Shown in pieces: positions 4,578-60,037 of a stretch of 64,000 bases of DNA. Where the stretch lies: NCBI RefSeq assembly GCF_050303215.1, contig NZ_JBNLBH010000019.1, positions 1-64,000 of the forward strand, written 5' to 3'. Both the position numbers and the translations under genes were made by a program. Origin of the DNA: Haliangium sp. Lineage in GTDB: Bacteria; Myxococcota_A; Polyangia; Haliangiales; Haliangiaceae. Numbering within the stretch: position 1 is the first letter of the stretch; every line of letters begins with the position of its first letter. The notes beneath the pieces are model-generated. The model worked only from the letters and a program-made list of their open reading frames with translations, was not told the DNA's origin and ran no database searches.

Positions 4578-4722
4578 GGGCCTTGCTCTCCTTGTGGACT
4601 TGCTGCTCACCGGTCTCCAGGCCAAGAGCAAGCACCGTGCCGGCGGCAAGTGCCGGATTTGCCACGGCTACCAGCCCATGCGCGGCGCCGGACGTGTGTC
4701 TTGTTGGTGCACTTGCTCCGAA

Positions 4723-23925: not shown

Positions 23926-25968
<2,043 letters not shown>

Positions 25969-26038
25969 GACCGCCCGCAGCGTATCACAGCCGCGCACGA
26001 CTGTTGGAACCCAGGCCAGAGAGAGTTAGGTTCACGCC

Positions 26039-27163: not shown

Positions 27164-27263
27164 CCCCGGCGGAGCCCATGGGGCCTCGACGATGTCGAGC
27201 CGGCCGAGGTGAGCTGCACCCCGGCACTCGCTGTCGTATGGTCGCGCCATCGAGACTACCGCC

Positions 27264-28637
<1,374 letters not shown>

Positions 28638-28672
28638 GCGCGCCGGGTCAGCGCGCGCCACCGCCGTTCGCC

Positions 28673-29785: not shown

Positions 29786-29935
29786 CGGGCCGTCCCGGCG
29801 TGGCGGCGATGGACCCTGGTCAGGCCCGGGGCACCTCGGCAAGATAGCGTCGCTCCGGCGGCCGCCGGCGATGACGCGGCGCCTGGATCCGGAGCATCGC
29901 CCGATCCGCCCGACCCGCTATCGAAAGGAAGCTCC

Positions 29936-31430: not shown

Positions 31431-31495
31431 GCCCAACCCCCGCGACCAACACCGGACCCCAGCGGCTCTGACGCCGAGGTCTGGGTCCCCGTCGC

Positions 31496-34400: not shown

Positions 34401-35644
34401 AACACGGCCGCACAGAAGCGCGCGCTGGTCGCGGCCAGGAGCCCACCCAGCTCGCCGATTTCGCGCCCCACCAAGCCGAGATCGACCTCGGGTTCGAACA
34501 GTACCACTCCGGCCCACCGACGCTGATTCGACGACGATATCGGCGCCGGGTCTTCGGTGCGGGCCCGGCGCGAAGCCCCCGGGCTCGAGTTGGGACGCTC
34601 GGACCATGCTGTCGCCGCGGCCTCCGCGGTCGAGGCCGCGGCGGCGCTCGCCCGCGTCGAGCGGGAGGCTGCGTCCAGGGCCGGGAGCAGCGCCGCACGC
34701 AGCTCGGCGACCGAGCCGAAGCGGCGATCGGGACGCTTGGCCAGGCACCGCTGCAGCACGTCGAGCACAGCCTCAGATCGCACCAGACCGCCGTGCAACG
34801 AGGGCGGACGGCGGTACATGTGGGCCATGCGCACGCTCGACGCGTCCCCCACGAACGGCGGCTCGCCCGCGATCATCTCGTAGCCCATGATCCCCAGCGA
34901 ATAGATGTCGGCGCGGGAGTCCACCCGTCCCAGCCCTTCACACTGCTCGGGGGACATGTACGCCGGGGTCCCCAGGATCATGCCCGGCACGGTCTGCACC
35001 GGCGTCCCCGGCGCCACGACCAACGACTTGGCCAGGCCGAAATCGATGAGCTTGGCCACCGCCGGCGTCTCCACCGGCTCGGGGCCGGGCGCCGCCAACC
35101 CGCGGCTCACGAAGATGTTCTGCGGCGACAGATCGCGGTGGGCGAAGCCGCACCCATGAGCGGCCTCGACGGCGTCGAGGATCGGACCCAGCAACGCCGC
35201 CATGGTCGCCGCGGCCAACGGCGCACCCAGAACCCGATCCAGCGTCGGCATCGTCAGCCGCTCGATCACCAAGTACGGGCGTCCATCGTCGAGTACGCCC
35301 CGGCCGTACAGAGCAGGCACGTAGGGTGGTCCGATGGCGCTCAAGGCCTGGGCCTCGGTCTCCAGGCGCACACGCGCCGTAGGGTCCTCGCGGTGCACCA
35401 CCTTGATGGCCACGGGCAGCCCATCGGCCTCGCGTGTGGCCGCGAGCACGGTCGCGAAACCTCCCTGTCCAAGGCGACCATCGATCCGATACCCAGCGAC
35501 CGATAGGGTCACAGCGACGTCGACGTGATTGGCTTCACCCTGCATGTCTACCCGACTAGGTCTACCCAACTGGCCGAACGCGCTCCCGAAACCAGACACG
35601 TGGCCAGCGCCGCCATTATCTCTACGATTCCCGTTTTGGGTCAA
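31496..35644 (-). CDS. Ser/Thr kinase - AAA/NACHT-like ATPase - TPR multidomain regulator
   Basis: Kinase motifs LGQGGFATV, VAIKVV, HRDLSPQNIFV, DFGLAK. Walker A GLGKSHLAATLS. A long TPR/SLR-like C-terminal region. Confidence 0.85.
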   Translation of the reverse strand: MTQNGNRRDNGGAGHVSGFGSAFGQLGRPSRVDMQGEANHVDVAVTLSVAGYRIDGRLGQGGFATVLAATREADGLPVAIKVVHREDPTARVRLETEAQALSAIGPPYVPALYGRGVLDDGRPYLVIERLTMPTLDRVLGAPLAAATMAALLGPILDAVEAAHGCGFAHRDLSPQNIFVSRGLAAPGPEPVETPAVAKLIDFGLAKSLVVAPGTPVQTVPGMILGTPAYMSPEQCEGLGRVDSRADIYSLGIMGYEMIAGEPPFVGDASSVRMAHMYRRPPSLHGGLVRSEAVLDVLQRCLAKRPDRRFGSVAELRAALLPALDAASRSTRASAAAASTAEAAATAWSERPNSSPGASRRARTEDPAPISSSNQRRWAGVVLFEPEVDLGLVGREIGELGGLLAATSARFCAAVFYGTEAQPPVAAASAAAQALIERGVAVRVIVDRDQVRSMRSRRGVERVVGVNTGKAAVLLRGTLPAAVLLSRQAAEAVAPAAVVALPGRDDLVRVRAGSGEVVSMVGLGADGPLLGRDQVLAELVDSATECARERRPGLCTILAETGLGKSHLAATLSRTLSERDPKLCVLTLHARPRVGDQGARILGTLVASILREASEQVTPGVEVLLARLERVLGATSWPALALVCGWLSADEPALAKLRAAPSVLRRTAAQAAGELLCRLAARAPVCLVLDDGHMSDGITLDALEYATRAEVAAPLWVAVFAQPKLTQTRQHWGRRAASRREVTLGALADEDAAALCRRLLHPARDVPTQVVARLVAQTQGNPLLLTELARGIQRQGLIRRHDRGKAWFLAADELGELLDLPGIAWLVERELGALSPALAAHARLLSLLGASFTLAEVEGVLHELERDGLGDEFPLDAEVGCGLLREQGLLVDRGQRAFWFRHALFREQIVRLIPAPLTLSIHAAAGRYYEHASGLGEARRRPLLAYHAAQAGLRERAIGLYVELADTMRDHHDYVEAAELYSRALELIAASGVDPVRPRAAGIPAAVAQPCLRALRGRGLMHYRQSRFDDAVADLCAAAELAESLGVVHVRAAILLDQATALDWRRDFAASRACVDEARAIAPAGDSLLEARLALALGRAHHRAEDDATAVVHLEEAARRGGALGELGYEPRVIALLLLGYIYPSLHEIERAQAVFETCIALCEEHGDRLHLAAALSNRCELWNWQNQPERSARDMRRAESIGREIGQLSVEYVTARNLAELYYYTGDLVAVEAPLGRAGELEPITGDKPMMPLLSARLGVFAGDPERAREGLARVRAAEARARAEHNHSGQLGEAEEVIVQAVELAVEGAGEAAWHAVLVRAEAALGEVDSIDVMDMMAWTLHRRGEANAARQMWRQAHARSLAAGHVIEARLRRRVAAGDD

Positions 35645-35938
35645 CGGGGTATCAACGCGTCATCCACATGTGATGCCCAATCCAATCAAACTTGGCCATC
35701 TAGACCTGGATCAGAAAAACCCTGACGGATCCAGGCCACGCCCCCCGTATCTCGGTCGCAAAAAGCAAAGAACATGTTATGGTACATGTCAAACACTTCG
35801 TTGAATACTGTTGAATACTGTCGATAGACGCTCGAGCACGGGGGATCGCTCAGCGAGCCCGATCTACCAACGGTGGCCCGGGATGGGACGGTTGCGACCG
35901 CCGTGCACCGTATGACAAGTCTTATATGGAGCCAATGA
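35645..35938. promoter_or_regulatory. AT-rich divergent intergenic region between the STPK-AAA-TPR gene and the RCC1 lipoprotein gene, holding candidate operator repeats
   Basis: GC drops sharply. Tandem ttgaatactg x2 at 35801..35820. Palindrome aacatgtt at 35771..35778 with a second acatgt 6 bp later. Confidence 0.5.
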
Positions 35939-38848
35939 ATGCGACCACATCGACCTTTGGCGGGGCCTATGAAACCCGACTGCCAGGCTCGAATCGAGCC
36001 GCGGCGGCGCAGGCACGACGGGAGATACGCCGGCGCAGCCCTGCTGGCGTGGGTCGCGCTGGTCGCGTGCCGGCCGGCAGAGAACCCGCCCGCGTCCGCA
36101 TTCGCGGGCGAGGTCGAGCACAACCGCGCCGCGCTCGCTCAGCTCTCCAACGGCCTGAGCCAGAACAACCTCGGCCCCAACGGGATCGCGTTCAACCACG
36201 TCAACCCCAGCGGCCTCGCCTTCAACGGCGTGCAGCTCAACCTCGCCTCCCTCAACCTCGCCTCCCTCAACCTCGCCTCGCTCAACCTCGCCTCCCTCAA
36301 CCTCGCCTCCCTCAACGGCGCCGTCTATGAGGACATCTGGCTGAACACGCTCTCCTTCGACGCCGAGGCCATGAGCAACGCGTCTCTCAACGCGGCCTCC
36401 CTCTCCGACGCCACGTTGAGCACGATGAAGATCGACGGGCAGCCCATCAGCGCGCTCGAGGCCGACGACGTCGAGAACATCATCAAGTACCTGGCCGAGT
36501 GCGCCCTCGTCGTGGGGCAGTGCGTCACCGTCACCCGGCTCGACGGCACCACCCAGGACTATTGTGGCTTGGAAGGACACGATCCCACCTGGAACGTGAA
36601 CGTGCCCGATTTGACCAAGTCCGCCGACATGGGCGAGTGCTTCGTCCGTCGCGCCGGCGCAGACGGTCACACAGCCACCCACGAGCCGTGGAACATCGAG
36701 GCCACCAAGATTCTGCTCCAGTACATGGTCGAGTGCGCCCTTTCTCCCGGCCAAAGCGCTACCATCTACGACATCGACGGTGTCACCCCCATGGTGTTCG
36801 AGGGCTCGCTCGGGCTGGCCCCGAGCTGGCGTGACGGCGCGCCCACCTCCGTGGAGCAGCGCAAGGTGTCGGCGTGTCTGGCGGCGCGCTCCAACGCCAA
36901 GGGCAAGAAGGTGCGGATCTCGCTGCGGGGCTCGGGCATCACCACGTCCGCGGTCGAGCGCGCCCACTTCGATACCCACGAGGGCGCGTTCTGGGGCGAC
37001 GTGTTCGGCCCCACCCCCGAAATCCACACTTGCATGGTCACCGGCGGCGGGCTGTCGGGGCGCACCTGCACCGAGGGCGACTGCGGCTTCCGCTCGTTGG
37101 GCGACTGCGCCGACGTGTGCAGCCAGCGCGACCCGGTCGATCTCGCCTACGGTGACTGCGACGGCGAGTCGGCCGTGATCAACACCTTCCTCGATCTGGG
37201 CCAGGAGCTGGCCTTCGGCGACGAGCACAACTGCTTCATTCGCAACGACGGCACGCTGTGGTGCTGGGGCAAGAACAACCTCGGTCAGCTCGGCCTGGGC
37301 TTCGTGTCCGACTTCGAACCCTACCCGCTCCAGGTCATGACCCTGAGCGGCGCCGTGGCCGAGGTCTCGGGCGGCTGGCGCCACACCTGCGCCCGCACCA
37401 CCAGTGGCGATGGGTACTGCTGGGGCCTGAACAGCAAGGGGCAGCTCGGTGACGGCACCATCGTCGACCGCTCCAAGCCGACCTACGTCTCCGCCCTGAG
37501 CAGCGACGTCGCCGCGATCTCGGCCAACGACCGCCATAGCTGCGCCCGCCGCACCGACGGCACCCTACACTGCTGGGGCAACAACGACTTCGGTCAGGTC
37601 GGCGACGGCAGCGGCGTCGACCAGCCCCTGCCGGTGCCGGTGAGCGCGCTCGGCAACCAGGTCTCGGAGCGCTCGCTGGGCTCGCGCTCGCGCTCGAGCT
37701 GCGCCATCACCATCAGCGGCGATCTGTACTGCTGGGGCCGAAACGACTACGGTCAGGTCGGCGACGGTAGCCTCGTCGATCGCCTCGTCCCGGTGGTCGT
37801 GGACCAGGACGCCGGCGGCGGTGCCTTCGGCGCCGTGACCGACGTCTGCGGCGGCGAGGCCCACACCTGCGCGCGCCGCAGCGACGGCACGGTGTGGTGC
37901 TGGGGTCAGGATTCCCAGTACCAGATCGGCGCCGGCGCCCCGACCCTGAGCCCCCGCCCCCGACCGGTCCAGACCGCGTTCCCGGGCTTCGCCGCGCCCG
38001 GCGGCCTGTCCTGCGGACGCGACCACACCTGCGCCATCCGCGACGACGGGGCCTTGTTCTGCTGGGGCGCAAACGATTTCGGCGAGGTCGGCGACGGCAC
38101 CTCCAGCCCGGCCGAGATCCCGACCCAGGTCACCGCCCTCGGCACCGACGTCGAGCTGGTGACCTGCCAGGGCGAGACGAGCTGCGCGGTGAGCTTTGAC
38201 GGCACCCTGTCGTGCTGGGGCCGAGATACGCACGCGCTGCTGTTCCCGGGTTGGTCCTCGTCGGTGCCGGTCGTCGTCGACCTGGCCTGCAACCACAACG
38301 CGGTGTGCGAGCCCGAGCACGCGGAGTCCTGTGACACCTGCGCCGCCGACTGCGGCGTGTGCGACACCGCTCGGGTGTCGCTGGCCCCGAGTGACGACAC
38401 CGAGGCCCGGGCCAAGAAGCCCGACACCAGCTACGGCGGGCAAGACCCGATCACGAGCGTGGCCTCGGCCCTCGCCGAGGAGCGCTTGCTGCTGCGCTTC
38501 GACCTCTCCGCCGCCCCCGGCTCCAGCGTGAGCCAAGCCATCCTGCGCCTGTACTCCAACGACCCCAGCGGGGTGTGCGACTTGGTGCGGATCGACGACG
38601 ACGGCTGGAGCGAAGACACCCTCACCTGGAACGACATGCCGGCGCCCGGGGTCAGCCTCGGGGCGGTGAGCGGCGTGGCCGGCGGCTGGGTGTACGTAGA
38701 CGTCACCGACTACGTCAGCGACGAGTACGCCGGCGACGGCGTGGTCAGCTTCGCCTGCGTGGCCCAGTCCGGCACCTTCTCCATCGCCTCCAAGGAAGAC
38801 GCTGCGCCCGCGGTTCATCCGGTCCTCGATGTGGACGTCACGCCATAG
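35939..38848 (+). CDS. Secreted lipoprotein: pentapeptide-like repeats, 7-bladed RCC1 propeller, C-terminal DNRLRE domain
   Basis: Lipobox LVAC. Pentapeptide-like 5-residue periodicity GIAFN/GLAFN/GVQLN/(LASLN)x5. Six RCC1 signatures such as WCWGKNNLGQLGLG, YCWGLNSKGQLGDG and HCWGNNDFGQVGDG. C-terminal LRLYSNDPSGVCDLVRIDDDGWSEDTLTWNDMP matches the DNRLRE domain. Confidence 0.85.
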   Translation: MRPHRPLAGPMKPDCQARIEPRRRRHDGRYAGAALLAWVALVACRPAENPPASAFAGEVEHNRAALAQLSNGLSQNNLGPNGIAFNHVNPSGLAFNGVQLNLASLNLASLNLASLNLASLNLASLNGAVYEDIWLNTLSFDAEAMSNASLNAASLSDATLSTMKIDGQPISALEADDVENIIKYLAECALVVGQCVTVTRLDGTTQDYCGLEGHDPTWNVNVPDLTKSADMGECFVRRAGADGHTATHEPWNIEATKILLQYMVECALSPGQSATIYDIDGVTPMVFEGSLGLAPSWRDGAPTSVEQRKVSACLAARSNAKGKKVRISLRGSGITTSAVERAHFDTHEGAFWGDVFGPTPEIHTCMVTGGGLSGRTCTEGDCGFRSLGDCADVCSQRDPVDLAYGDCDGESAVINTFLDLGQELAFGDEHNCFIRNDGTLWCWGKNNLGQLGLGFVSDFEPYPLQVMTLSGAVAEVSGGWRHTCARTTSGDGYCWGLNSKGQLGDGTIVDRSKPTYVSALSSDVAAISANDRHSCARRTDGTLHCWGNNDFGQVGDGSGVDQPLPVPVSALGNQVSERSLGSRSRSSCAITISGDLYCWGRNDYGQVGDGSLVDRLVPVVVDQDAGGGAFGAVTDVCGGEAHTCARRSDGTVWCWGQDSQYQIGAGAPTLSPRPRPVQTAFPGFAAPGGLSCGRDHTCAIRDDGALFCWGANDFGEVGDGTSSPAEIPTQVTALGTDVELVTCQGETSCAVSFDGTLSCWGRDTHALLFPGWSSSVPVVVDLACNHNAVCEPEHAESCDTCAADCGVCDTARVSLAPSDDTEARAKKPDTSYGGQDPITSVASALAEERLLLRFDLSAAPGSSVSQAILRLYSNDPSGVCDLVRIDDDGWSEDTLTWNDMPAPGVSLGAVSGVAGGWVYVDVTDYVSDEYAGDGVVSFACVAQSGTFSIASKEDAAPAVHPVLDVDVTP
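36236..36310 (+). repeat. Perfect in-frame 15-bp x5 tandem repeat (ctcaacctcgcctcc; one C/G variant) encoding (LASLN)x5
   Basis: Read directly from the sequence; lies inside the RCC1 lipoprotein gene. Confidence 0.9.
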
Positions 38849-38856
38849 GTGGTGCC

Positions 38857-40461
38857 ATGAGCGATCGCAACCACAACCCTCCACAGCATGACCATCGCCC
38901 ACCCGGGGCCGACCTCGCCCCCGGCGACAGCGGCGCCCCCAGCAAACGCGCGTCCGAGCTGGTGGCCGCGCCCGGCCAGACAGACGAGACCGACTCACAA
39001 ATGATCGTGGTCACCCAGTCGATGCGCTTCATCAAGGGCGACGAGGAGTTCGACTACGGAGCGCAGCTCGCTGCGGGCACCATGATCGGAGGCTGTCGCA
39101 TCGTGGACACGCTCGGCCGCGGTGGGTGCGGGACCGTGTACGAAGCCGTGCGCGAAGACAGCGGCCGGCGGGTGGCGGTGAAGGTCCTCCACTCCTATCT
39201 CGCCGCGTCGCCGCAGCACGTGCAGCGCTTCCTGCGCGAGAGCGAGGCCATGCAGCGCATCCGTCACCGCGGCGTGGTCGAGATTCTGGGCACCGGTGCC
39301 CTCGACGATGGGCGCCCGTACATGATCATGGAGCTGGTCATCGGGATCAGCCTGAGCGAGTGGATCGACCGCCGCGGGCGGCTGTCCCCGACCGAAGCGC
39401 TGGAGCTCATGGAGCTCATCTGCGATCCCCTCACCTGCGCCCATGAGGCCGGCATCGTCCACCGCGACATCAAGAGCAGCAACGTCATGCTGCGCGATCC
39501 CCCCGGCGCCCCCGACGCCTCCGGGGCAGGGCCGACGGTGAAGCTGCTCGACTTCGGGCTGGCCAAGCTGATCGACCCCGACGGCCCCAGCGGCATCAAC
39601 ACCAGCGTGGGGCTGCTGCTCGGCTCGCCCCACACCATGGCGCCCGAGCAAGTATTGGGACAACCGGTCGACGTGCGCACCGACGTCTACGCCCTGGGCG
39701 TGCTGTTGTTCCGCATGCTCACTGGCCGGTTCCCGTTCATGAACAAAAACTCGATCCTGCTCGCTCAGATGCAGGTCCACGCCGCCCCGCCCCCGCCCAG
39801 CAAGCTGGCCCCGGTCGGCCCCGGCCTCGACGCCGTGGTCGCGCGGGCCATGGCCAAGGCGCCGGCGGAGCGCTACGACAGCGTCGCCGACTTCCTCGCC
39901 GGGCTGCGGCGCGCGGTCCACCCCAACCCAGCCGACGCCACCAAGGACACCACCGGCTCGGCCTTCGCGCTGTACGTGGACGCCCGCGTGGCCGAAGACG
40001 AAGCCCTCGACGACGACCTGTTCATGGAGCTCATGGCCGTGCTCGACACCACCGAGGCCATCTTCGACGGCGCGGGCGTGCAAACCGCGCTGCAGACCGG
40101 CCAGACCCTGGTCGGGGTCGTGCCCATCACTGACACCGCGGTGGTGCACCGCTCCGCCCTGATCGCGCTCGCGCGCGAGCTGGAGCTCCAGCTCGCCTCC
40201 TGCCTGGACCCGCACAGCCGCCTGCACGTCAACATCTGCCTGCACCGGGCCGAGGCCACCCTGCGCACGGTCGACGGCGCCAGACAAGTGATCGGCGGGC
40301 CGGTGCTCGAACTCGGCGACTGGGCCCCGCTGGAGCCGTATAGCGGCATCATGGCCACGCCGGCGGCGATGTCCACGTCCCCTGCGCTCGAGACCATCGG
40401 CGCCGAGCACGAACTCGACCCGCTGGACGAAAGCCCGCGCTACCTGCGCATCGACAGCTAG
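38857..40461 (+). CDS. Ser/Thr protein kinase with uncharacterised C-terminal domain
   Basis: Kinase motifs [35 protein letters not shown]. Start 8 bp after the RCC1-gene stop with RBS aggtgg, so likely co-transcribed. Confidence 0.82.
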
Positions 40462-40475
40462 CGCGCCCGCCGGCA

Positions 40476-41272
<797 letters not shown>

Positions 41273-41276
<4 letters not shown>

Positions 41277-42373
41277 GGCGCTCCCAGCCGGGCCAGGGTG
41301 TCGTCGATCTCGTCGTGGAAGGGACGCCCGGCGCGGCGCGCGCGCAGGGCCTGGAGGGGCGCGATGGCCCAGGGGCCGCCGACCCGGGCCAGGAGCTCGA
41401 TGGTGAGGCCGCGGCGCTCGCGCTTGCGGGCCCGCAGGCCGGCCAGCAGCGCGGCCCGAGCCGGCTCGGCGGCGGGGTTGTCGGGATCCAAGGCGAGCAC
41501 GGCGGCGGCGGCGCGCAGCTTGATCATGGCGGCCACGCCCCGCTTGCTGAGCAGGGGCGCGATATACACGGCCGCGCCGGCGCGCAGCTCGGCCGGGCTC
41601 GGGACATCGTCCGCGTGGTCGGGGCTGGCCGAGCGCGCAGGCTCGGTCTTACCTGGGACACGGCCGTCGGCGCCGGCGCCGGGCAGGGTGCCGGCCAGGC
41701 GCTCGAGGGCCTCGATGGCGTCCCAGGCCAAGCCGTCGTCGTCGAGGAAGGTCGCGAGCACGTCGAGGGCGCGGGCGTCGCCGAGGTCGGCCAGGGCGTA
41801 GGCGAGGTCGAAGCGGGTACGGGGCCGGGACCAGGTGTCGAGCAGCTCGGCCAGGCGCTCACGGGCGCGGGTCTCGCCCACGGCGCCCAGGGCCAGGGCC
41901 GCGGCCGCCACCACCTCACCGTCGTCGTCGTCCAGGGCGTCGAGCAAAACCGAGCCGGCGCGCTCGGGGTCGATCTCGGCCAGCGAGGTCGCGGCCTGGA
42001 AACGCAGATCAGGTGGCCCCTCGCGCAGGGCCCGGGCCACCGATTCGAACGCGGCCGGGAGGGCCAGGCGTCCGAGCGCGATGGCAGCGGCCTGACGGAC
42101 CACCGGCACGGGATCGTCGAAGCAGGCCACGAGCGGGTCCACGGCGTCGGCGCTGTCGAGCTCGCCCAGCGCGAGCGCGGCCTCGCTGCGGATCTCGGGC
42201 CGACGGTCGGCCAGGGTCTGGATCAGGGCCGGCACGGCCTGGGCTCGCTGCTCGGGGGTGTGCACGTCGCCGAGGGCGTTGGCGGCCTGGGCGCGCACGC
42301 GGTCGCTCTTGCTGCCGAGGTCGCGCAGCGCGGCTTCGAAGGTGATGGTGCTCGATCGCAGCTCGTAGGTCAC
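41273..42373 (-). CDS. HEAT-repeat (PBS-lyase type) protein
   Basis: Repeated AAxALG...D..AV.xL motifs. 4-bp overlap with tatD. Confidence 0.7.
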
Positions 42374-42412
42374 GGCGGCTCCGGGCGGACGGGTCCTCGT
42401 CCGCGTCGCGGG

Positions 42413-42967
42413 CTACTTAGCAGATTGGGCCGGATCTGTCTCGACCCGCTCACCGTCGGGCGCGGCCCCGGACCGGCGCTCGCCGAGCGAGGCCTCGAGC
42501 AGCTCGACCCGCTCGATTCGCTCGGGCGCGACCCGGGCCAGGATGATCTCGCACAGGACGGCCTTGTCCTCGATGTCATAGGGCGCGCTGGCGCCGACGC
42601 CGGGCACCAACAGGCTGCAGGCTGGGTCGCCGCCGTCCACGAAGCAGGTGGCGGTGTCGGGCGAGGCCACGACGCGCACGATCGAGGTCCAGGCCAGCTT
42701 CAGCCGCGGGCGGCCCCGGCGCTCGACCACCAGCCCGTCCTCGTCGGCGGTCACGGTGAGGCGCCACGCGGGCGAGATCAAGTACAGGGCCCCCAGGGCC
42801 AGCCCGAGAGCGCCGCCGAGCACGGCGTAGAGCGCCTGCGGGCCGCCGAGCACGGCGCCGTAGACGATCAGGGCCGCGCCGAGCGCGCTCGCGCCGGTGG
42901 CGAGGGCGCGGAAGCGGGGGCGAAAGCGAAAACTACGAGGCAGCGGCGACGTATTTGTGGATGGCAA
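42413..42967 (-). CDS. Membrane protein with two N-terminal TM helices and a bacterial PH-like domain
   Basis: Two TM helices, then WRLTVTADEDGLVVERR...KLAWTSIVRVV topology. Confidence 0.55.
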   Translation of the reverse strand: MPSTNTSPLPRSFRFRPRFRALATGASALGAALIVYGAVLGGPQALYAVLGGALGLALGALYLISPAWRLTVTADEDGLVVERRGRPRLKLAWTSIVRVVASPDTATCFVDGGDPACSLLVPGVGASAPYDIEDKAVLCEIILARVAPERIERVELLEASLGERRSGAAPDGERVETDPAQSAK

Positions 42968-43421
42968 TGCGGGCGTCCAGAGGGATGGCTTCGAACAGGA
43001 CGCCGAAGCCCATGGGCAGGATCAGGATGGTGTCATTGGGGCCGGGGACCTCGCAGTCCTCCTCGCGCCGCCACAGGCTCCAGCCCAGGGCGTCGACCTG
43101 GCCGTAGCCCTTGAGCTGGAACGAGAACGCGACCCGGGTCAGCAGGGGCAGGGCCTCGCCGACGATGAAGGCGCCGTTGATGGAGATGTCGCGGACCACG
43201 GCCGGGAATTTTTGGCCGATGGCGCGCTCGTTGGGCATGACGCGCTCGTAGACCCGCTCCAGGTTGGGGTGCATGCTGACGTCAGCCGGCGCGAGCGGCT
43301 GAACGACGGTGGGAACGTTGAGCAAAACACGGCGAGCCCGCCGCTTTTCGTGAGACACGGTTTCTCCCCTCGCTTCGACAGGGGCATCGTACCCGCTTGG
43401 CGCGCCCGCACAAGAGTGCAT
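42933..43421 (-). CDS. PilZ-domain protein (c-di-GMP receptor-like)
   Basis: RRARRV...VRDISINGAFIVGE match the PilZ RxxxR and D(I/L)SxxG motifs. Start uncertain; GC3 suggests it may lie at an internal GTG/ATG. Confidence 0.6.
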   Translation of the reverse strand: MHSCAGAPSGYDAPVEARGETVSHEKRRARRVLLNVPTVVQPLAPADVSMHPNLERVYERVMPNERAIGQKFPAVVRDISINGAFIVGEALPLLTRVAFSFQLKGYGQVDALGWSLWRREEDCEVPGPNDTILILPMGFGVLFEAIPLDARIAIHKYVAAAS

Positions 43422-43518
43422 CTGGCCCTCCCGCTGGTCTTGCCGCGGAGTTGGCCGGTCGCAACTCATAGAGGACATGGTCGGACCAGCAATGGCGGGC
43501 AACGACGACACCGGCAGA

Positions 43519-46500
43519 TCACGCCGGCTGCATGGGCAGGTCGAGGGTGAAGGTGGCGCCGGTGCCGGGCCCGTCGCTGCTACATCGGAGCGCGCCGCCC
43601 ATCTCGTTGGCGGCCAGAACGCTGGAGTGCAGGCCAAAGCCGTGGCCGTCCGCCTTGGTGGTGAAGCCGTACTGGAAGACCCTGACCAGGTTTTCCCGAG
43701 CGATGCCGCGCCCGTTGTCCGCGACGTCGACGTGGGCGATCGGCGGCGAGGAATCGCCGTCGTGAGCGCGAACACGCACACTGAGGCGGCGCTCGCCCGC
43801 AGGGACCTCGACCATGGCATCGATCGCGTTGGAGATCAGGTTGATCAGGATCTGGACCAGCTTGTGGCGCTCCAGCGCGAAGGAGGGGAGCTCGGCGAGC
43901 TCGCGCACCACCGTGACCTGGTGACGGGCGAGGCGCTCGGCCTGGAGCTCGAGCGCCTCCTCGACCAGCGCCGTCAAGGCGCACTCCTCCTTGACGCTGG
44001 CGCGCGTGGCGTAGACCTGCTGGGCCTGCACGACCTTCTTGATGTGCCCGATGAGCTCCTGGATGCGCTGCATCTCGACCAAGACCTGGTCACGCTCATC
44101 GATGAGGCGCTCGCCGAGGCGCTGGAGCAGCTCGGGGAAGCGCTGGCCGCGCCGGTCGTGCACGAAGAAGGCGACCAAGTCGCCTTGGTGCTGGTCGAGC
44201 AGGGCGCTGGAGCGGGACACGGAGTCGATGCTCGACGCCTGCAGCCGCTCGATGGCGACGAAGGTGGAGGTTTGGAGACTGTTGAGCAAGTTGCCGACGT
44301 TGTGCAGCACCCCGGTGGCGATCTCGGCCATGCCGGCCTCGCGCGACATCCGGATCAGGCGCTGCTGGGCCTCGTGGAGCTGCCGCAGGCTGTCTTGCAG
44401 CTTGACGTTGGAGTCGGCCAACTCGGCAGTGCGCTCGACCACGCGCTGCTCGAGGCTGCGGCTCAGCTCCTGAACCTCGGCGAAGCCGGCCGCGTTCTCC
44501 AAGGCCGCGCCGGCGAGGGTGGCGATGTACTCGCCCAGCCGGGCCTCCTCGTCGCCGTACAGCCCGGCCACGCCGTGATGCTCCACCAGCAACACGGCCG
44601 CGCATCGGCCGCGCTCCTTGATGGGCACCCCCAGGGCCGAGCGGATCCCGACCTCGTCGACGCCGCTGAGCTCTTCGTCGTCCGCCGCGATCAGCGGCTG
44701 CCCCGACTCGGCCGCGCGCCGGAGCAGCTCGGGCTCGATGTCCGTGCGTCCGACATCGCCCGCAACGGGTCGCCAGGGGGCGTCGGGCGCGTCGCTCGCG
44801 CGCATCAGGACCACGGCCACGTCGCCCCGGAGCAGGGTCTTGCCGGCCTCGTGGGTGGCGTCGAAGACCGCGTCGCGGGACAGCGCGGCGGCGATGCGGC
44901 GGCCCTGTTCCTGGATGGTGGTGAAGCGGTCGGCGAGCGAGAGTGAGAACCCTTCGGCGCCGCCGCTGATGCCCTCATCGCCCTCCGCGGCCAAGATGAA
45001 GCCGGCACCCAGCTCGCGCAGGGTGGTGCGGCCCTTGGCCAGGTCCACGTCGGCGTCCTCCCAGCCCAAGGACAGCCCGACCCGGCCCCGCATCCACAGC
45101 GTGTAGGCCTCCTCGATGCGGGCCTGCTGGCGGCGGGCCTCGGCCAGGCTCTGGTCGAGGAGGCGACGGGCCTCGCCGGGCTCGTCGTCGTAGGCGGCCA
45201 ACAAGCCCAGCTCGCGCAGCGCGTGGGGGTGCCCGGCGGGCAGGCGACCGGCCGTCTTCAGCCCCTGGCGCGCGGCCCGGCGGGCCCGGCGCAGAAAGCC
45301 ACGGCGCTCGGCGGGGGCATGGGGCGGGGTCTCCAGGGCGGCGCGCCGCAGGACCGTGGCGTACCACGGCAGCACCGTCATCGATGTCGCCACCGACGCG
45401 GTGAAGCGGTCGTGCGCATTGCTCGCCTGCTCGAGCAGTTCGACCGCGGCCCGGCTGTCGCCGCGGTAGTAGCAGCAGACGCCCCTGGCCAGGTACAGGC
45501 ACTGCCGGCGGACGAGGTCATCCTCGACCCCGGGCATATCGGTCTCGAACGCCTGCTCCGGAACCTGGCCGCCGCTGGCGAAGGCCCATATCGCCAGTCC
45601 GGTGGCAAAGCCTTGCGGGAGCTGGCGCGCCACCCCGTCATCGTAGAGCCGGCGGGCGTAGGCGAGGCCGGCGCGCAGATCGCCGAGGCGAAAGGCCGCC
45701 ATGCTGGCCACGTACAGCGCGGAGCCGCCTTCGAAGGCCTCGCCGGCGCGCTCGAACATGCGCACCGCGATCTCGGCGTGGTGAAGGCTCTCGTCCCAAC
45801 GGGCCATCCAGAACATGGCGCTGCCCACGCGGGCGTGCGACAGCCCCTCCTGGAACAGGTTGCCAAAGCGGCGCGAGTAGTCCAGCGCGCCCTCGCCGTA
45901 GTAGGCGACCGCATCGTAGCCGAGCCCCATCGAGCCCGCGAAGGTGATGAACCCATAGGCCTCGCCCAGGGTAGCGCCGGGAAGGTAGCGCTCGGCCTGG
46001 TTGACGGCGCGCAGCACCGCCCACAGGCTGGCCTTGGGGTTGCCCAAGAACAACCACGTGTAGCTCAGGCGGACCAGGTCGAGCGCGACGCCCAGGTCGT
46101 GCTCGGCCCGGTCGAGCGGACCACGGGCCCGGAGCCAGCGCGGGAAGACGCGGTGCAGGACCTGCACCCCCACCTCCTTCAGCAAACGCAGCGCGACCCA
46201 GGTCGGGCGCCGGGGCAGCGACACCCCGCGCATGACCAAGCTCCGCTCGAGGTGCTCGACCGCCTTGGGGAAGTTGCAGCGCTGGTGGAAGTGCTTGCCG
46301 AACTGGCTCTCGACCTCTACTCGCTGCTCGTGGCTCTCGGCGAGCTGGCGCCCGGCCTCCAGGTGCCCTTCGGCCTCGTCGAAGCGGCCCTGGAGGAGCA
46401 GGATGTCGGCGAGCCCGAGCTGGATCCGCCGCGCCATGGCCTGGTCGGCGGCCTCCTCGCCGCGCAAGGCGACCCGATACAGAGACTCGGCCACGGACAG

Positions 46501-48660
46501 CGCGTGCCTGCGGCGGGCGTCCTCCGCGGCCTCGATGGCAAACGGCAATGCCCGCACCGGCTCCCCGCCGGCGTCGTAGTGGTAGGCGACCTCGCTGGCC
46601 GAGGCCGGCACCTGGGTCTCCAACTCGGCGGCGGCGGCCACATGGAGGGCGCGCTGCTGGTCCGGGGACAGCCGGTCGAGTACCGCCTCGCGCAGCTTGT
46701 CGTGCACGAAGGTGTAGGTGGTGAGGTCGGCGTTGGCCCACAGGAGCTGCTGCCGGCACGCCTCGGCCAGGGTCTGGTTGACCAGGCGGCGCTCACGTCG
46801 GCTGAGCTCGGCCACGATGTGGGCGGCGAAGTGCCTGCCCAGCACGGCCCCGATCTCGAGCACCGCGAGGGTCTCCTCGGCCAGGTGGGTGAGCCGACGC
46901 TGCAACATCACCGCGCCGTCGGCCGAGGAGCGCATGTCGTCCAGCGCCGACGACTCGACCACCCACGTAGCGCCCTGGTGCTGCAGAGCCCCGACCTCGA
47001 CCAGCCCGCGCAGCAGTGAGGCGGCCAAGAACGGGCTGCCGTCGGCCAAGCGGATCACCGTGGTCGCGATATCGTCGGGCAACGCGCCGGCCATGGACTC
47101 GAGCAACGCGCGCACCTCGGGCTGTCGCAGGGGCGGCAGGACCAGGTGGGTGTCGGTCTCGAGCGCGCGCACGGCGTCGCCCTCGTCGGACCGGAAGGCC
47201 AAGAGCACCAGGGTGTGGCTCGACGCACCGGACCCGCGCGCGACCCGGGTCCGCCACGAGGCCACGGTCTCGAGGGTGCTGGTGTCGGCCCACTGTGCGT
47301 CGTCGATCACGACCACGGCCGGCCGCTCGGCCGTGCCCAGCGCACAGACGTACTCGGTGAGCGCGCGTTGGGTGCGCTCCTGGGCACCGACGGCGACGCC
47401 GAAGTCGCGCTCGGGGACCTCGCCCAAGAGCGAGCGCAGGCCGGGGAACACCTCGTAGCTGGCCTGGAGGTGCTCTTCGAGGGCCTCGCGCAGGCGCGCG
47501 GCCAGCGTCGGCTCGTCTTGGCCCGCGCGCACCACCTCACGCGTCAACCCCTCCAAGGCCTCGTAGGGCAGACCGCCTTCGGCCACCCCTTGGCCACGCA
47601 GCAACCACAGCCCCCGTTGGGTGGCGCGCAGCATGACCTCTTCGAGCAAGCGTGACTTGCCTCCTCCGGAGGGGGCTTCGATGAGCACGAGATCCCCCTT
47701 GCCGGCCCGCGCCGCCTCGAACTGGGTCTCGATGCAGGCGAGCTCCTTGGCCCGGCCGATGAAGCTGGGCTGGGTGAGCGCCAGCCGGCGGTCGGCCAGG
47801 CCCAGGGTCAACTCGGGCTCCGCTTCGCCGCGGGCGAGCCGACGCCCGATCTCCTCGAGATCGACGAGCAACGCCTGCGCAGACTGATATCGCTGCTCGG
47901 GGTCCTTGTGCAACAGCCGCTGGACCAGCTCGTCGAGCACCCGCGGGACCTCGCCGCGGCGCTCGCGTAAAGGCGCCGGGGTTGCGGTCAGGTGATTGCG
48001 CAGCAGCTCGCCCACGTTGTCGCCCAAGAACGGCACCTCCCCGCTCACGCACTGGTAGACGGTGACACCGAGCGAGTACAGGTCGGCCCGGCCGTCGACG
48101 CTGGCGTGGACCATCCCGGCCTCCTCGGGCGAGGCGTAGCGGGCCCGCTGTACCAACATGGCGCGGTCATCGGTCTCGAGGTCGGGCGCCCGGACGCAGC
48201 CGAAGCCGAGCGGATAGAGCCGGTCGTCAGAGGCGATGTGCAGATCGAAGGGCGTGATGCTGCGGTGGACGAGGCCGTTGCGATGGGCGAGGTCGAGCGC
48301 GGCGGTGGCCCGCGTGGCCAACGCCACCGTGTCCGCGACCGACAGCGGCTGGGCGTCGATGCGCGCGCTGAGCAGGTCGCCGTCGAGCCTCGGGGTTACT
48401 TGATAGAGCACATCTCCGTGCAGCCCCGACCCGAGCACGGGGAGGAAGGCGCCATCGGCGACCTCCGAGACGATGACGGCCTCGTCCGCGACCCGGAGCC
48501 TGGTGGCGTGGGGGACGCGCTCGGCCGAGACCGCCTGGAGGATGACCGGGGCGCCCTGACCCATGTCCTCGGCCAAGAACCGCTCGATGCCCGACCAGGC
48601 CGTGGAGAGCCGGCGGGTCAGCCGATAGCGATCAGCGCAGACATCCCCGATATCCAACAT
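43519..48660 (-). CDS. Giant hybrid sensor: degenerate kinase-like (pseudokinase) domain - AAA ATPase - TPR - GAF - histidine kinase (HisKA + HATPase_c)
   Basis: N-terminal kinase-like fold lacks the Gly-loop and VAIK Lys, with HRS replacing HRD and GFG replacing DFG. Walker A IEAPSGGGKSRLLEEV. Long TPR region. GAF-like segment. H-box AEIATGVLHNVGNLLNS. HATPase_c N-box LINLISNAIDAM and G-boxes DNGRGI, GFGLHSS. Start at ATG MLDIGD preceded by RBS gagggaga; the ORF's upstream GTG was rejected. Confidence 0.82.
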   Translation of the reverse strand: MLDIGDVCADRYRLTRRLSTAWSGIERFLAEDMGQGAPVILQAVSAERVPHATRLRVADEAVIVSEVADGAFLPVLGSGLHGDVLYQVTPRLDGDLLSARIDAQPLSVADTVALATRATAALDLAHRNGLVHRSITPFDLHIASDDRLYPLGFGCVRAPDLETDDRAMLVQRARYASPEEAGMVHASVDGRADLYSLGVTVYQCVSGEVPFLGDNVGELLRNHLTATPAPLRERRGEVPRVLDELVQRLLHKDPEQRYQSAQALLVDLEEIGRRLARGEAEPELTLGLADRRLALTQPSFIGRAKELACIETQFEAARAGKGDLVLIEAPSGGGKSRLLEEVMLRATQRGLWLLRGQGVAEGGLPYEALEGLTREVVRAGQDEPTLAARLREALEEHLQASYEVFPGLRSLLGEVPERDFGVAVGAQERTQRALTEYVCALGTAERPAVVVIDDAQWADTSTLETVASWRTRVARGSGASSHTLVLLAFRSDEGDAVRALETDTHLVLPPLRQPEVRALLESMAGALPDDIATTVIRLADGSPFLAASLLRGLVEVGALQHQGATWVVESSALDDMRSSADGAVMLQRRLTHLAEETLAVLEIGAVLGRHFAAHIVAELSRRERRLVNQTLAEACRQQLLWANADLTTYTFVHDKLREAVLDRLSPDQQRALHVAAAAELETQVPASASEVAYHYDAGGEPVRALPFAIEAAEDARRRHALSVAESLYRVALRGEEAADQAMARRIQLGLADILLLQGRFDEAEGHLEAGRQLAESHEQRVEVESQFGKHFHQRCNFPKAVEHLERSLVMRGVSLPRRPTWVALRLLKEVGVQVLHRVFPRWLRARGPLDRAEHDLGVALDLVRLSYTWLFLGNPKASLWAVLRAVNQAERYLPGATLGEAYGFITFAGSMGLGYDAVAYYGEGALDYSRRFGNLFQEGLSHARVGSAMFWMARWDESLHHAEIAVRMFERAGEAFEGGSALYVASMAAFRLGDLRAGLAYARRLYDDGVARQLPQGFATGLAIWAFASGGQVPEQAFETDMPGVEDDLVRRQCLYLARGVCCYYRGDSRAAVELLEQASNAHDRFTASVATSMTVLPWYATVLRRAALETPPHAPAERRGFLRRARRAARQGLKTAGRLPAGHPHALRELGLLAAYDDEPGEARRLLDQSLAEARRQQARIEEAYTLWMRGRVGLSLGWEDADVDLAKGRTTLRELGAGFILAAEGDEGISGGAEGFSLSLADRFTTIQEQGRRIAAALSRDAVFDATHEAGKTLLRGDVAVVLMRASDAPDAPWRPVAGDVGRTDIEPELLRRAAESGQPLIAADDEELSGVDEVGIRSALGVPIKERGRCAAVLLVEHHGVAGLYGDEEARLGEYIATLAGAALENAAGFAEVQELSRSLEQRVVERTAELADSNVKLQDSLRQLHEAQQRLIRMSREAGMAEIATGVLHNVGNLLNSLQTSTFVAIERLQASSIDSVSRSSALLDQHQGDLVAFFVHDRRGQRFPELLQRLGERLIDERDQVLVEMQRIQELIGHIKKVVQAQQVYATRASVKEECALTALVEEALELQAERLARHQVTVVRELAELPSFALERHKLVQILINLISNAIDAMVEVPAGERRLSVRVRAHDGDSSPPIAHVDVADNGRGIARENLVRVFQYGFTTKADGHGFGLHSSVLAANEMGGALRCSSDGPGTGATFTLDLPMQPA

Positions 48661-49114
48661 ATGAGTGTGTTCTCCCTCTGAGTGGACCCATTTCGCTGCG
48701 TCCGCGAGCGACCGTATTCGCGCCGACGACCTCGTCCCCACGCCGAACGAGCGCGATGGCCGCGCCCGCCAGTGAAGACTCGTACGCTCGCCTCATGGCA
48801 GGACAGACGGTCCGCCGAGACGAGCCGAGTGACCAGCGAGGCACGTCAATCACTGCGAGGTGGTACGGATCGCGGTCGCGCGCCGCCAAGGAATCTGGAC
48901 GCGATGAAACCATTCTCGACCGTCCGTGCAAAAACGACAACCGAAATCGGTACCGCGCGCGCCACCCGTGCTCGCGCGCAGTTCCCACCCGCGCTCGCGC
49001 GCAGTTCGATGTCCACACGAGGAAGTCGTGCGCCCGCAGTGCGCGCCGACCCACCGAGGCCAGATCAGGTCAGACCAGGACAGACCCGACCAGCTCAGGC
49101 CAAACCAATTCGGG

Positions 49115-49147
49115 CCCGCTCAAGGCCCGCTCAAGGCCCGCTCAAGG
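49115..49147. repeat. 11-bp x3 tandem repeat cccgctcaagg overlapping the DsbA-like stop codon
   Basis: Read directly. An additional imperfect 22-23-bp x2 tandem repeat (ccacccgYgctcgcgcgcagtt) lies at 48962..49006 in the same intergenic region. Confidence 0.85.
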
Positions 49148-50728
49148 AAGATCCACCCCAAACGGCCTGCACTGCACCCGCACTCCTGGCGGCGCCGGCG
49201 TGCCCATCTGGCGATACAGCCGCTGCGCGCGGGCGTCGTCCCGGGCTCGACAGGCCTGCAGCAGGGCCGCACGACCCGTGCCCGGATCCCCCGCGGCGGC
49301 CCCGACCGCGGCCCCGACCACGGGCCGCTCCCGCCCCGCGACGTCGTCGCCGCCCACCTGTTCGAGCAGCGCGCGATACACCGCCGCCGGCGCCACCCCG
49401 GCCGCGATCAAAGCCTCGGCCTCGGCCATCTTGGGCCGGAACACGTGCCGATCGAGCACATCGAAGGGTGCCGCGCCCGGGATCGGAGTGCCGTTGACGA
49501 ACATCGTCGGCGTCCCCCGCACCCCCAGCGCCTTGCCCGCGGCCGCGTCGGCCGCCACCTGCTCGAAGTAGCGCCGGTCGTCGAGCGCGGCCCGGAACCG
49601 GTCCATGTCCAGGCCCGCGGCGCGGGCGTGGCGCTCCAGGTCGGCCCGCGACAGCGCCTCCGGCTCGGCGAACACGCGGTCGTAAAACGCCCATAGTCGC
49701 CCCTGGGCCGCCGCCGCCACCGCCGCCTCGGCCGCGAGCTGGGCCCGGGGGTGGAACGACAGCGGCAGGTGCCGCAGCACGACCCGCACCCGGTCCCCAT
49801 AGACCGCGCGCAGCTCCTGCAAGGTCGGGTGGAGCCGAGCGCAGTACGGACACTCGAAGTCCGAAAACACCACCACCGTGAGCGGCGCGTCCGCCGGCCC
49901 CAGGGCGTGCCCGGGCAAGCCGTCACCGACTTCGTACAACGAGGCGGAATCGAGCGCGGTCGGGCGGTAGCGAGGGTCGAACTCGTCCGGCGCGTCCTCG
50001 GGCCGAGCCCCCTGCGCCAGCCCACCCGCGGTCACGGCGTCATAGACCTCGGCCGCGGCCACGCCCTGGGCCACCAAGGCCCGCGCCCGCGCCAGCTCCT
50101 CCTCGACGATGCGCGCGAACACCTCCAGCGGCATCGCCCCGACCACGGGCCGACCGTTGATGAAGAAGCTGGGCGTGCTGTACACGCCCAGGTGCTCGGC
50201 CGACGCCGCGTCGGCCTCGATCGCCGGGCGGTGTCGGTGCTGGTCCAGGTCGCGCCGAAACCGACCCACATCCAGCCCCAGCGCGGCCGCAAAGTCCTCG
50301 ACCTGGGCTCGCCCGGGGTGGCCGCCGGCCGCGAAGATCAGCTCGTGCATGGGCCAGAACGCGCCCTGCGCCCCCGCCGCCATGGACGCCTCCGCGGCCA
50401 GACCGGCGTCGTCGAGGTCGAGCGGGTTGTGGCGATACACTCGCCGGATCTGGCCCGGAAACAGCCGCTCGAGGTCGGCCAGGGTCTCTTGCACCCGCCC
50501 GCAGTACGGACAGATGAAGTCCGAAAACTCGACGATCGTGACCAGGGCGTCGTCCGGCCCCCGTCGGGGACCGTCTCCGAGCGGGACGAGATACGTCTGG
50601 GCCGGGTCGAACACGCGCGGCTCCCGCGCCTGGGCCGGCGCCGGCGTCCACGCCCACGCGATCGCACACGCGCTCAAGGCCACCAGGCCCAGGCCCAGGC
50701 GGCGGCGCCCGCGCATCCGAACAGACAT
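49142..50728 (-). CDS. Secreted protein with two tandem DsbA-like thioredoxin domains
   Basis: Signal peptide. Two CPYC active-site motifs (FICPYCGR, FECPYCAR), each in a DsbA-like context. Confidence 0.82.
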   Translation of the reverse strand: MSVRMRGRRRLGLGLVALSACAIAWAWTPAPAQAREPRVFDPAQTYLVPLGDGPRRGPDDALVTIVEFSDFICPYCGRVQETLADLERLFPGQIRRVYRHNPLDLDDAGLAAEASMAAGAQGAFWPMHELIFAAGGHPGRAQVEDFAAALGLDVGRFRRDLDQHRHRPAIEADAASAEHLGVYSTPSFFINGRPVVGAMPLEVFARIVEEELARARALVAQGVAAAEVYDAVTAGGLAQGARPEDAPDEFDPRYRPTALDSASLYEVGDGLPGHALGPADAPLTVVVFSDFECPYCARLHPTLQELRAVYGDRVRVVLRHLPLSFHPRAQLAAEAAVAAAAQGRLWAFYDRVFAEPEALSRADLERHARAAGLDMDRFRAALDDRRYFEQVAADAAAGKALGVRGTPTMFVNGTPIPGAAPFDVLDRHVFRPKMAEAEALIAAGVAPAAVYRALLEQVGGDDVAGRERPVVGAAVGAAAGDPGTGRAALLQACRARDDARAQRLYRQMGTPAPPGVRVQCRPFGVDLP

Positions 50729-50829
50729 CGACGTCAGCGTTGATTCCACAGCCATTGCGGGAGGCTAGCGAATCCCGCCGCGATGGGCCACAGCCTTCGC
50801 GGGTTTTGATCTCGTAACCACGGTACCTC

Positions 50830-53704: not shown

Positions 53705-55018
<1,314 letters not shown>

Positions 55019-55039
55019 GATGATAAGCCTCCTCAGGTC

Positions 55040-57970
<2,931 letters not shown>

Positions 57971-58954: not shown

Positions 58955-60037
<1,083 letters not shown>

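Follow-up and report, generated by a model that had tools for sequence, protein, structure and literature searches.

A giant Haliangium sensor histidine kinase with a degraded Hanks-type kinase domain, and a neighboring PilZ gene probably brought beside it by rearrangement

The stretch of DNA analyzed here, which we call the window, comprises 64,000 nucleotides (nt) from Haliangium sp. (GCF_050303215.1; contig NZ_JBNLBH010000019.1, positions 1-64,000) and has a G+C content of ~71%. It contains, on the minus strand, a giant gene whose 1713-amino-acid (aa) product we refer to as the giant kinase, and next to it a small gene for a protein that is a PilZ domain standing alone. Our reading of this locus, which we hold with a probability of about 0.7, is that the product of the giant gene is a cytoplasmic sensor histidine kinase with multiple inputs, of the kind described as CP1, "dual," or "trifunctional," and that the adjacent PilZ gene is independent of it, having been placed there by rearrangement. 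An earlier note on this DNA had described a PilZ gene upstream of a pseudokinase-ATPase-TPR-GAF-histidine kinase hybrid and had interpreted the pair as a signaling scaffold that converts Ser/Thr kinase-type and second-messenger inputs into a His-Asp phosphorelay. What that note observed is partly confirmed, being largely right but wrong on gene order and overstated on the HisKA domain, and its interpretation of the locus is partly supported.

The giant kinase is encoded within a single long minus-strand open reading frame (ORF) at 43519..48741. We placed its start at the ATG at 48660, 9 nt after the sequence GAGGGAGA. The resulting protein is identical in sequence to a Haliangium protein (P0001) that carries the NCBI name [quoted passage not shown] The Pfam domains that score above their cutoffs are Pkinase (aa 56-264), AAA_16 (300-468), TPR_12 (745-808), GAF (1262-1387), and HATPase_c (1599-1711). 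The P-loop ATPase, TPRs, and GAF domain noticed earlier are thus present, in that order, after the pseudokinase domain. NCBIfam returned only partial, below-cutoff matches, for the giant kinase and the PilZ protein alike. The ATPase region resembles that of the TOMM kinase/cyclase model TIGR03903.

The feature that sets the N terminus of this protein apart is the state of its kinase domain. Residues 9 to 271 align with Mycobacterium tuberculosis PknB at an E value of 2.8e-25, and the Pfam Pkinase model (PF00069) scores 45.9 bits against a gathering cutoff of 31.7, which identifies a protein kinase fold. Catalytic residues were read from the pairwise alignment with PknB and from a 120-sequence alignment of the family. 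The Gly-rich loop, GFGGMS in PknB, is STASGI in the giant kinase, so that the GxGxxG signature is lost, and the beta3 motif VAVK is VILQ, which puts Q42 at the position of the Lys. The catalytic loop HRDVKPAN has become HRSITPFD, in which S134 replaces the HRD Asp, Thr replaces the Lys, and D139 replaces the catalytic Asn. The metal-binding DFG motif is GFG, with G152 in place of the Asp. Landmarks of the fold itself are retained, namely, the alphaC Glu, the SPE motif, the subdomain IX Asp, and the subdomain XI Arg. The N-terminal domain, as these alignments have it, is a Hanks fold that lacks every residue needed for phosphotransfer and for canonical binding of ATP and Mg. The earlier proposal that it is a pseudokinase therefore stands, as neither alignment restored the catalytic residues.

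These losses are shared by the four nearest relatives of the giant kinase, all from Haliangium sp. (P0002 to P0005, with full-length identities of 79, 60, 52, and 50%). In all five members of this clade (P0001 to P0005), the beta3 Lys is replaced by Gln or His, the HRD motif reads HRS, the catalytic Asn is replaced by Asp or His, and the DFG motif reads GFG, and many positions inside the kinase fold are invariant among them. Shared losses combined with invariant fold positions suggest that the fold has been maintained while catalysis has gone. In the wider family, 36 of the 117 scored members lack at least one of the Lys, the HRD Asp, and the DFG Asp, and only 7 of the 117 lack all three; the Haliangium clade accounts for five of those seven.

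A domain with this residue pattern could be atypical rather than dead, binding a nucleotide or another ligand in a noncanonical way (compare WNK, ULK4, and SelO-type proteins). R11, R13, and R27 of the N-lobe, through which such binding might occur, do not vary among the five clade members, and modeling suggests arginine-based, metal-independent ATP binding in the related DLHK pseudokinase family (PMC12599244). Against this stands the joint loss of five catalytic or ATP/Mg elements (the G-loop, Lys, HRD Asp, Asn, and DFG Asp), and we regard an atypical ligand-binding domain as quite unlikely.

The distribution of the clade appears to be narrow. When aa 1-290 were searched exhaustively with phmmer against 1.84 billion sequences, each the representative of a 50%-identity cluster, two cluster representatives from the clade were returned (81% and 55% identity), and the remaining matches were at 43% or less. 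A scan of metagenomes found no close relative of the giant kinase: no matched segment exceeded ~37% identity, and the single full-length match was at 32%. A scan of genome contigs with the generic patterns K[DA]PEQRYQ and [IL]DDAQW[ALV]D yielded only distant kinase relatives among the matches listed, the best at 32% full-length identity. The nearest full-length relative outside the clade among those matches, from a member of the Kofleriaceae (L085, 32% identity), retains the Lys, an HGD motif, and the Asn and has a standard H-box, HELNNPL.

Behind the degraded domain, the P-loop of the ATPase and the GAF domain are intact. Walker A (SGGGKS, aa 331-336) and Walker B (VVVIDD, aa 449-454) are both present in the ATPase, with G332 to S336 and D453-D454 invariant in the clade alignment. 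An AAA_16 P-loop in which both Walker motifs are intact, followed by a long helical/TPR region, resembles the STAND NTPases with TPR arms of the MalT/AfsR/PknK type. Unlike those proteins, in which the output is a DNA-binding domain, the giant kinase ends in a histidine kinase.

The earlier note had called this end a complete HisKA/HATPase_c transmitter, a description that holds for its second half. HATPase_c is matched at 6.4e-18, and the boxes of the catalytic and ATP-binding (CA) domain are conserved: NLISNA (N), DNGRG (G1), F1662 (F), and GHGFG (G2). The dimerization and histidine phosphotransfer (DHp) half is a different matter. Pfam HisKA (PF00512) has no match in the whole giant kinase (E of ≤0.1) or in aa 1391-1599 taken alone (E of ≤10), a region that no other Pfam model matched either, and the precomputed Pfam domains of P0001 to P0005 and of a second group of "trifunctional" proteins (P0093 to P0111) list no PF00512. 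What is found instead is a divergent DHp with an HNVGN H-box and an insertion of two helices. The candidate phospho-acceptor, His1453 (in MAEIATGVLHNVGNLLNSL; H-box VLHNVGNLLNS), aligns with the phospho-His of ZraS and FixL and is invariant in the clade and in P0093 to P0111. The residue that follows it (H+1) is Asn rather than an acidic Glu or Asp, and this Asn is invariant across the variant DHp family; the H+4 residue is also Asn. As a separate observation, the variant DHp (H-box MAE[IV]A..VLHNVGN.LNS, with the two-helix hairpin insertion) recurs in "trifunctional" kinases of several phyla.

Structure prediction gave a similar picture. An AlphaFold2 (AF2) monomer model of aa 1391-1713, in which the dimer is by design not represented, has a mean predicted local distance difference test score (pLDDT) of 77, with values of 54 to 84 in the DHp helices and ~90 in the CA domain. 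Its helices (2-51, 55-84, 88-111, and 113-161 in model numbering) are laid out as a long coiled-coil helix, predicted at aa 1391-1441, followed by the helix bearing His1453, the two short inserted helices, a long return helix, and the confidently modeled CA domain. The top Foldseek matches of this model in the PDB are the DHp-CA kinases LvrB, ZraS, HK853, and CckA (E of 2e-14 to ~1e-14). From the conserved motifs and the model, we consider the transmitter plausibly functional, as a variant with H-N in place of H-E/D and not as a canonical HisKA domain. Among the 28 large ORFs in the 64-kb window, none encodes a receiver (Response_reg, or REC) domain, and the kinase is therefore an orphan.

The same residues could be taken to mean that the histidine kinase end is not a kinase, acting mainly as a phosphatase or as a scaffold incompetent for phosphotransfer, with the STAND ATPase as the sole enzyme of the protein. 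For HisKA domains, Willett and Kirby reportedly found in 2012, using Myxococcus xanthus CrdS, that the acidic H+1 residue is needed for autophosphorylation and that an Asn or Thr at H+4 is needed for phosphatase activity. By that rule, the invariant Asn at H+1 and the Asn at H+4 would favor such a nonkinase transmitter, as would the missing Pfam HisKA match. Histidine kinases of the HisKA_2 and HWE families, however, are active without an acidic H+1 residue. Moreover, the N, G1, F, and G2 boxes do not vary across 16 sequences whose identity is just 39 to 77%, which would be unexpected if ATP were not used, and the same DHp-CA module occurs in many "trifunctional" proteins whose Ser/Thr kinase motifs are intact. 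We therefore judge it unlikely that the transmitter is not a kinase.

Multidomain proteins of this general design have been described before under several names. The CP1 family of bacterial Ser/Thr kinases is cytosolic, is always fused to a COG3899 predicted ATPase and often to GAF or PAS domains, and consists of ~40% pseudokinases; it has been described as mainly cyanobacterial and proteobacterial (PMC12599244; bioRxiv 10.1101/2025.01.12.632604). The giant kinase likewise has an N-terminal Hanks-type domain linked to a COG3899-type ATPase (AAA_16 at 300-468 plus the helical/TPR arm), with a GAF sensor (1262-1387) behind it. Degraded catalytic motifs are also common to both, and the frequency in our homologue sample (36/117) matches the published description. 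The Haliangium clade departs from CP1 as described in its origin in the Myxococcota and in having lost the Lys, the HRD Asp, the Asn, and the DFG Asp together.

A second precedent is provided by the cyanobacterial "dual protein kinases" HstK/Alr2258, Pkn40, and Pkn41 (cbSTKIII), which have a Ser/Thr kinase-GAF-histidine kinase layout (PMC2176072, citing Phalip et al. 2001). Like them, the giant kinase is a single chain with a Ser/Thr kinase fold at its N terminus, one or more GAF domains, and a histidine kinase at its C terminus. Proteins missing important catalytic domains were excluded from the selection in PMC2176072, so the dual kinases, as far as described, have complete Ser/Thr kinase catalytic domains, whereas the Haliangium domain is dead. 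Their DHp is of the Pfam HisKA type, in contrast to the HNVGN H-box of the giant kinase.

The closest counterparts of the C-terminal module are found among the proteins that NCBI calls "trifunctional" (for example, P0093 from Archangium and P0099 from a member of the Comamonadaceae), which share the overall layout. In P0093 to P0111, the variant DHp-CA module, which has both the MAE[IV]A..VLHNVGN H-box and the inserted helices, is 38 to 45% identical to that of the giant kinase over ~320 aa. Most of these proteins, however, retain the Lys, HxD, Asn, and DFG motifs of the kinase domain, and over the N-terminal 1300 residues they are only distant relatives of the giant kinase, whose own N-terminal part is closest to a group of HisKA-bearing relatives (P0006 to P0092; 32 to 40% identity). 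That the N-terminal part and the C-terminal module are closest to different groups indicates probable module shuffling in the origin of the giant kinase. Judged by sequence, then, the giant kinase fits the CP1/dual kinase/"trifunctional" family, where the fit to CP1 is to the published description and not to the constraint-based classifier of its authors. The architecture has already been described, and the Haliangium clade is a narrowly distributed addition to a known family.

The adjacent gene encodes a 141-aa protein that NCBI lists as a "hypothetical protein" (P0121). Its start codon is GTG, with GAGGGGAG 5 nt upstream. By itself, this protein scores 18.7 bits with the Pfam PilZ model (PF07238), below the gathering cutoff of 22.5, and the assignment therefore needed a scan of the family and a fold search. 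Across the family, 68 of 71 members match PF07238 at an E value of ≤0.01 (best, 6.1e-07), and two motifs, R6xxxR10 and D57xS59xxG62, are invariant in all 71 sequences at an unusually long spacing of ~47 aa. The AF2 model has a pLDDT of 90.7, and the first 26 Foldseek ranks in the PDB are all PilZ domains, mostly solved with cyclic di-GMP (c-di-GMP), among them YcgR, PA0012, MotI, MrkH, Alg44, BcsA, and MapZ. A family profile searched against PDB sequences gave no significant match. The PilZ assignment of the earlier note thus survived both the profile test across the family and the fold test: by its model, the protein is a genuine PilZ fold, and its motifs make it a candidate c-di-GMP receptor. 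A possible identity with M. xanthus CdbS, whose bipartite motif lies within residues 7-41 of a PilZ domain spanning residues 7-82 (PMC10313047), was rejected on layout alone, the motifs being 47 aa apart here.

Where the PilZ gene sits in other genomes bears directly on whether it belongs with the kinase. The note had placed it upstream of the giant gene, which is true in plus-strand coordinates only; both genes are on the minus strand, and the PilZ gene begins 160 nt beyond the kinase stop codon, on its downstream (3') side. In six contexts of PilZ relatives (L081, L083, L084, L165/L166, and L167 to L169), PilZ is preceded by holB and a gene of the PSP1 family, in some cases with metG as well, and never has such a giant kinase as its neighbor. 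Two of these contexts, L081 and L083, have between holB and PilZ a protein of 651 to 663 aa with no Pfam hit on record, which leaves its PSP1 identity unconfirmed. On the 3' side of PilZ in these relatives lie a small membrane protein, a HEAT-repeat protein, and TatD. The window retains this half of the cluster: its PilZ, membrane protein, HEAT, and TatD genes are 60 to 75% identical to their counterparts in L081, which are ordered alike, and L083 and L084 have this order as well. Neither holB nor a PSP1-like gene is present in the 64-kb window. With the PilZ-to-TatD half kept and the holB-PSP1 half absent, synteny is broken exactly within the 160-nt spacer that separates PilZ from the kinase gene. 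We also noted that the gene after PilZ often overlaps the PilZ stop codon, that the PSP1 protein of the cluster is RicT/YaaT-like, and that the cluster is found in Myxococcota-like genomes.

Small PilZ genes beside holB are known from other bacteria. In Pseudomonas the gene order is tmk-holB-pilZ, and to our knowledge the PilZ proteins of Pseudomonas and Xanthomonas lack the c-di-GMP-binding motifs, unlike the myxobacterial family, in which RxxxR and DxSxxG are kept invariant 47 residues apart. A pilT2-holB-pilZ-hp operon has been documented in Neisseria (PMC5449619). The contexts of our PilZ relatives resemble these operons in having a small stand-alone PilZ gene beside holB in a housekeeping cluster; the likeness drawn here is one of layout, and the window itself has no holB side.

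One reading, built on the earlier note, is that the kinase and PilZ form a single signaling unit, in which PilZ would sense c-di-GMP and dock on the giant scaffold, perhaps at the pseudokinase domain or the TPRs, so that second-messenger and Ser/Thr kinase inputs converge on a His-Asp phosphorelay. The two genes do lie 160 nt apart on the same strand with no terminator-like or promoter-like site in the spacer, the PilZ protein has invariant c-di-GMP motifs and a confident fold, and c-di-GMP regulates some histidine kinases (the fold matches include PDB 5idm, "CckA in complex with c-di-GMP"). The comparative evidence runs the other way. The PilZ gene is downstream of the kinase, not upstream, and its conserved partners are the membrane protein, HEAT protein, and TatD genes that follow it; its relatives have PSP1 or metG upstream, with holB before them; and the absence of holB and PSP1 from the window puts the kinase at a rearrangement breakpoint. 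The PilZ family is also far more widespread and conserved than the kinase, with more than 500 homologues at 55 to 75% identity compared to a kinase clade of five members, and none of the 160 loci that we collected through kinase homologues contains this PilZ. We consider a single kinase-PilZ unit very unlikely, and the claim that PilZ feeds a second-messenger input to the kinase does not hold. A giant gene in L083 (1719 aa, 6.6 kb downstream of PilZ) was considered as a conserved link and rejected: its product is only 28% identical to the giant kinase, it lies on the other side of PilZ, and it has a HisKA domain.

The PilZ gene, then, is probably a member of a housekeeping holB-PSP1-PilZ-HEAT-TatD cluster that a lineage-specific rearrangement has brought next to the kinase. 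Several points weigh against the reading of the locus given at the outset. The kinase loci compared are those of homologues other than P0002 to P0005, and within Haliangium itself the adjacency could be conserved. Co-transcription is possible, the two genes being co-oriented and separated by just 160 nt in which no terminator is predicted; a promoter and terminator scan of 42300-49300 was uninformative, yielding no sigma-70-like sites and terminator-like hairpins at chance number only. Because the H-box has no acidic residue after the His (HN instead of HE/HD), the variant DHp may not be competent as a kinase. Finally, the role that we assign to the dead kinase domain is inference only.

If the giant kinase works as we propose, its sole catalytic output would be to phosphorylate itself on His1453 and pass the phosphoryl group to an orphan response regulator whose gene lies elsewhere. 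The STAND module would serve as a nucleotide-dependent oligomerization switch, as in MalT-type STAND proteins, while the TPR arm and the GAF domain would take up ligand or protein signals, which would pass through the predicted coiled-coil helix to the DHp. The dead kinase domain would be under purifying selection as a noncatalytic regulatory or docking surface, and some of the organism's many active Hanks kinases may target it or partner with it. A bolder version, which we think improbable, is that the Haliangium-restricted dead domain is a dedicated receiver for the Hanks kinase network. Active Ser/Thr kinases would bind to or phosphorylate this domain, whose activation-loop segment DLE[TS] retains a Ser or Thr in the Haliangium clade, and would thereby gate STAND oligomerization and, through it, histidine kinase output. 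A weaker addition to this version is that the rearrangement that placed PilZ downstream created a new, co-transcribed c-di-GMP link.

Table 1. Coordinates of the giant kinase gene, its predicted domains, and the PilZ gene with its neighbors (window positions unless a locus is named)
Feature	Coordinates	Strand	Basis
Giant kinase gene (pseudokinase-STAND ATPase-TPR-GAF-histidine kinase, 1713 aa)	43519..48660 including stop	-	ORF, identity to P0001, Shine-Dalgarno GAGGGAGA
Predicted dead Hanks-type kinase fold, aa 9-271	47848..48636	-	PknB alignment E 2.8e-25; Pfam Pkinase 45.9 bits
AAA_16 STAND NTPase core and start of helical/TPR arm, aa 300-808	46237..47763	-	Pfam AAA_16 3.4e-20, TPR_12 4e-10
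GAF domain, aa 1262-1387	44500..44877	-	Pfam GAF 4.5e-08, GAF_2 5e-07; both above cutoffs
Predicted coiled-coil signaling helix and divergent DHp, aa 1391-1550	44011..44490	-	Candidate phospho-acceptor His1453; AF2 helices
HATPase_c catalytic domain, aa 1599-1713	43522..43866	-	Pfam HATPase_c 6.4e-18; intact N, G1, F, G2 boxes
160-nt spacer from kinase stop to PilZ start; also synteny breakpoint relative to related genomes	43359..43518	-	Sequence
Stand-alone PilZ-domain protein, 141 aa	42933..43358	-	Identical to P0121; family Pfam scan, motifs, AF2 fold
Predicted membrane protein, 184 aa	42967-42413	-	Conserved PilZ-gene partner; order as in L081
HEAT-repeat protein	42373-41273	-	Pfam HEAT_2; conserved PilZ-gene partner
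TatD hydrolase	41276-40476	-	Pfam TatD_DNase; conserved PilZ-gene partner
Conserved PilZ cluster	Window 40476-43358; L081 6023-12005; L083 2962-8876; L084 4776-10916; L165 6785-10856; L167/L168	- (window)	

The rest of the window contains further features of interest. Compared to L081 and L083, ~13 kb (27200-40460) is inserted between TatD and a beta-lactamase/690-aa kinase gene pair (23926-27163). The insert carries genes for an amidohydrolase, a ricin-lectin/PI-PLC protein, a Pkinase-AAA_16-TPR protein, an RCC1-CBM96 protein, and a Hanks kinase. Taken together with the missing holB-PSP1 side, this insert implies that the genome region has been heavily rearranged. The RCC1-CBM96 protein (35939-38848, plus strand; 969 aa) has six RCC1 repeats, as in an RCC1-like beta-propeller, and a C-terminal CBM96 carbohydrate-binding module. 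At least five further genes for Hanks-type kinases lie within the 64 kb, at 6015-10061, 23926-25998, and 31496-35644 on the minus strand and at ~39100-40461 and 58955-60037 on the plus strand; their products include a 1382-aa Pkinase-AAA_16-TPR protein without a histidine kinase end and a 1348-aa Pkinase-TPR protein.

At 49111-49145, the 11-mer CCTTGAGCGGG occurs three times in tandem, at and just past the 3' end of a double-DsbA/thioredoxin gene (49142-50755, minus strand), and the copies overlap a terminator-like hairpin. A SusD/RagB-like protein gene adjoins a TonB-dependent receptor gene (CarboxypepD_reg plus Plug) at 53705-57970 on the minus strand, where the G+C content is 0.66 to 0.68 compared to ~0.72 elsewhere; this is a Bacteroidota-style nutrient uptake pair in a myxobacterial genome. 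At 2544-4649 on the minus strand, a 701-aa protein with MVP_shoulder (8e-29) and Vault_3 matches resembles the major vault protein, here in a bacterium.

Given that the design of the giant kinase is already catalogued and that the c-di-GMP link does not hold, the locus extends a known family by one small Haliangium clade and does not establish a new signaling principle. Should the dead domain prove to be a receiver for active Hanks kinases, it would constitute a hard-wired bridge from Ser/Thr signaling to two-component signaling. The PilZ family may be the more useful lead: it is widely conserved and uncharacterized, and it carries canonical c-di-GMP motifs within a holB-PSP1-metG-TatD housekeeping cluster of the Myxococcota. 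For the kinase family, bacterial pseudokinases have hardly been studied experimentally, and a protein that combines a fully degraded catalytic apparatus with intact ATPase, GAF, and histidine kinase modules could offer a clean system for testing the function of a dead Hanks domain within a STAND-histidine kinase sensor.

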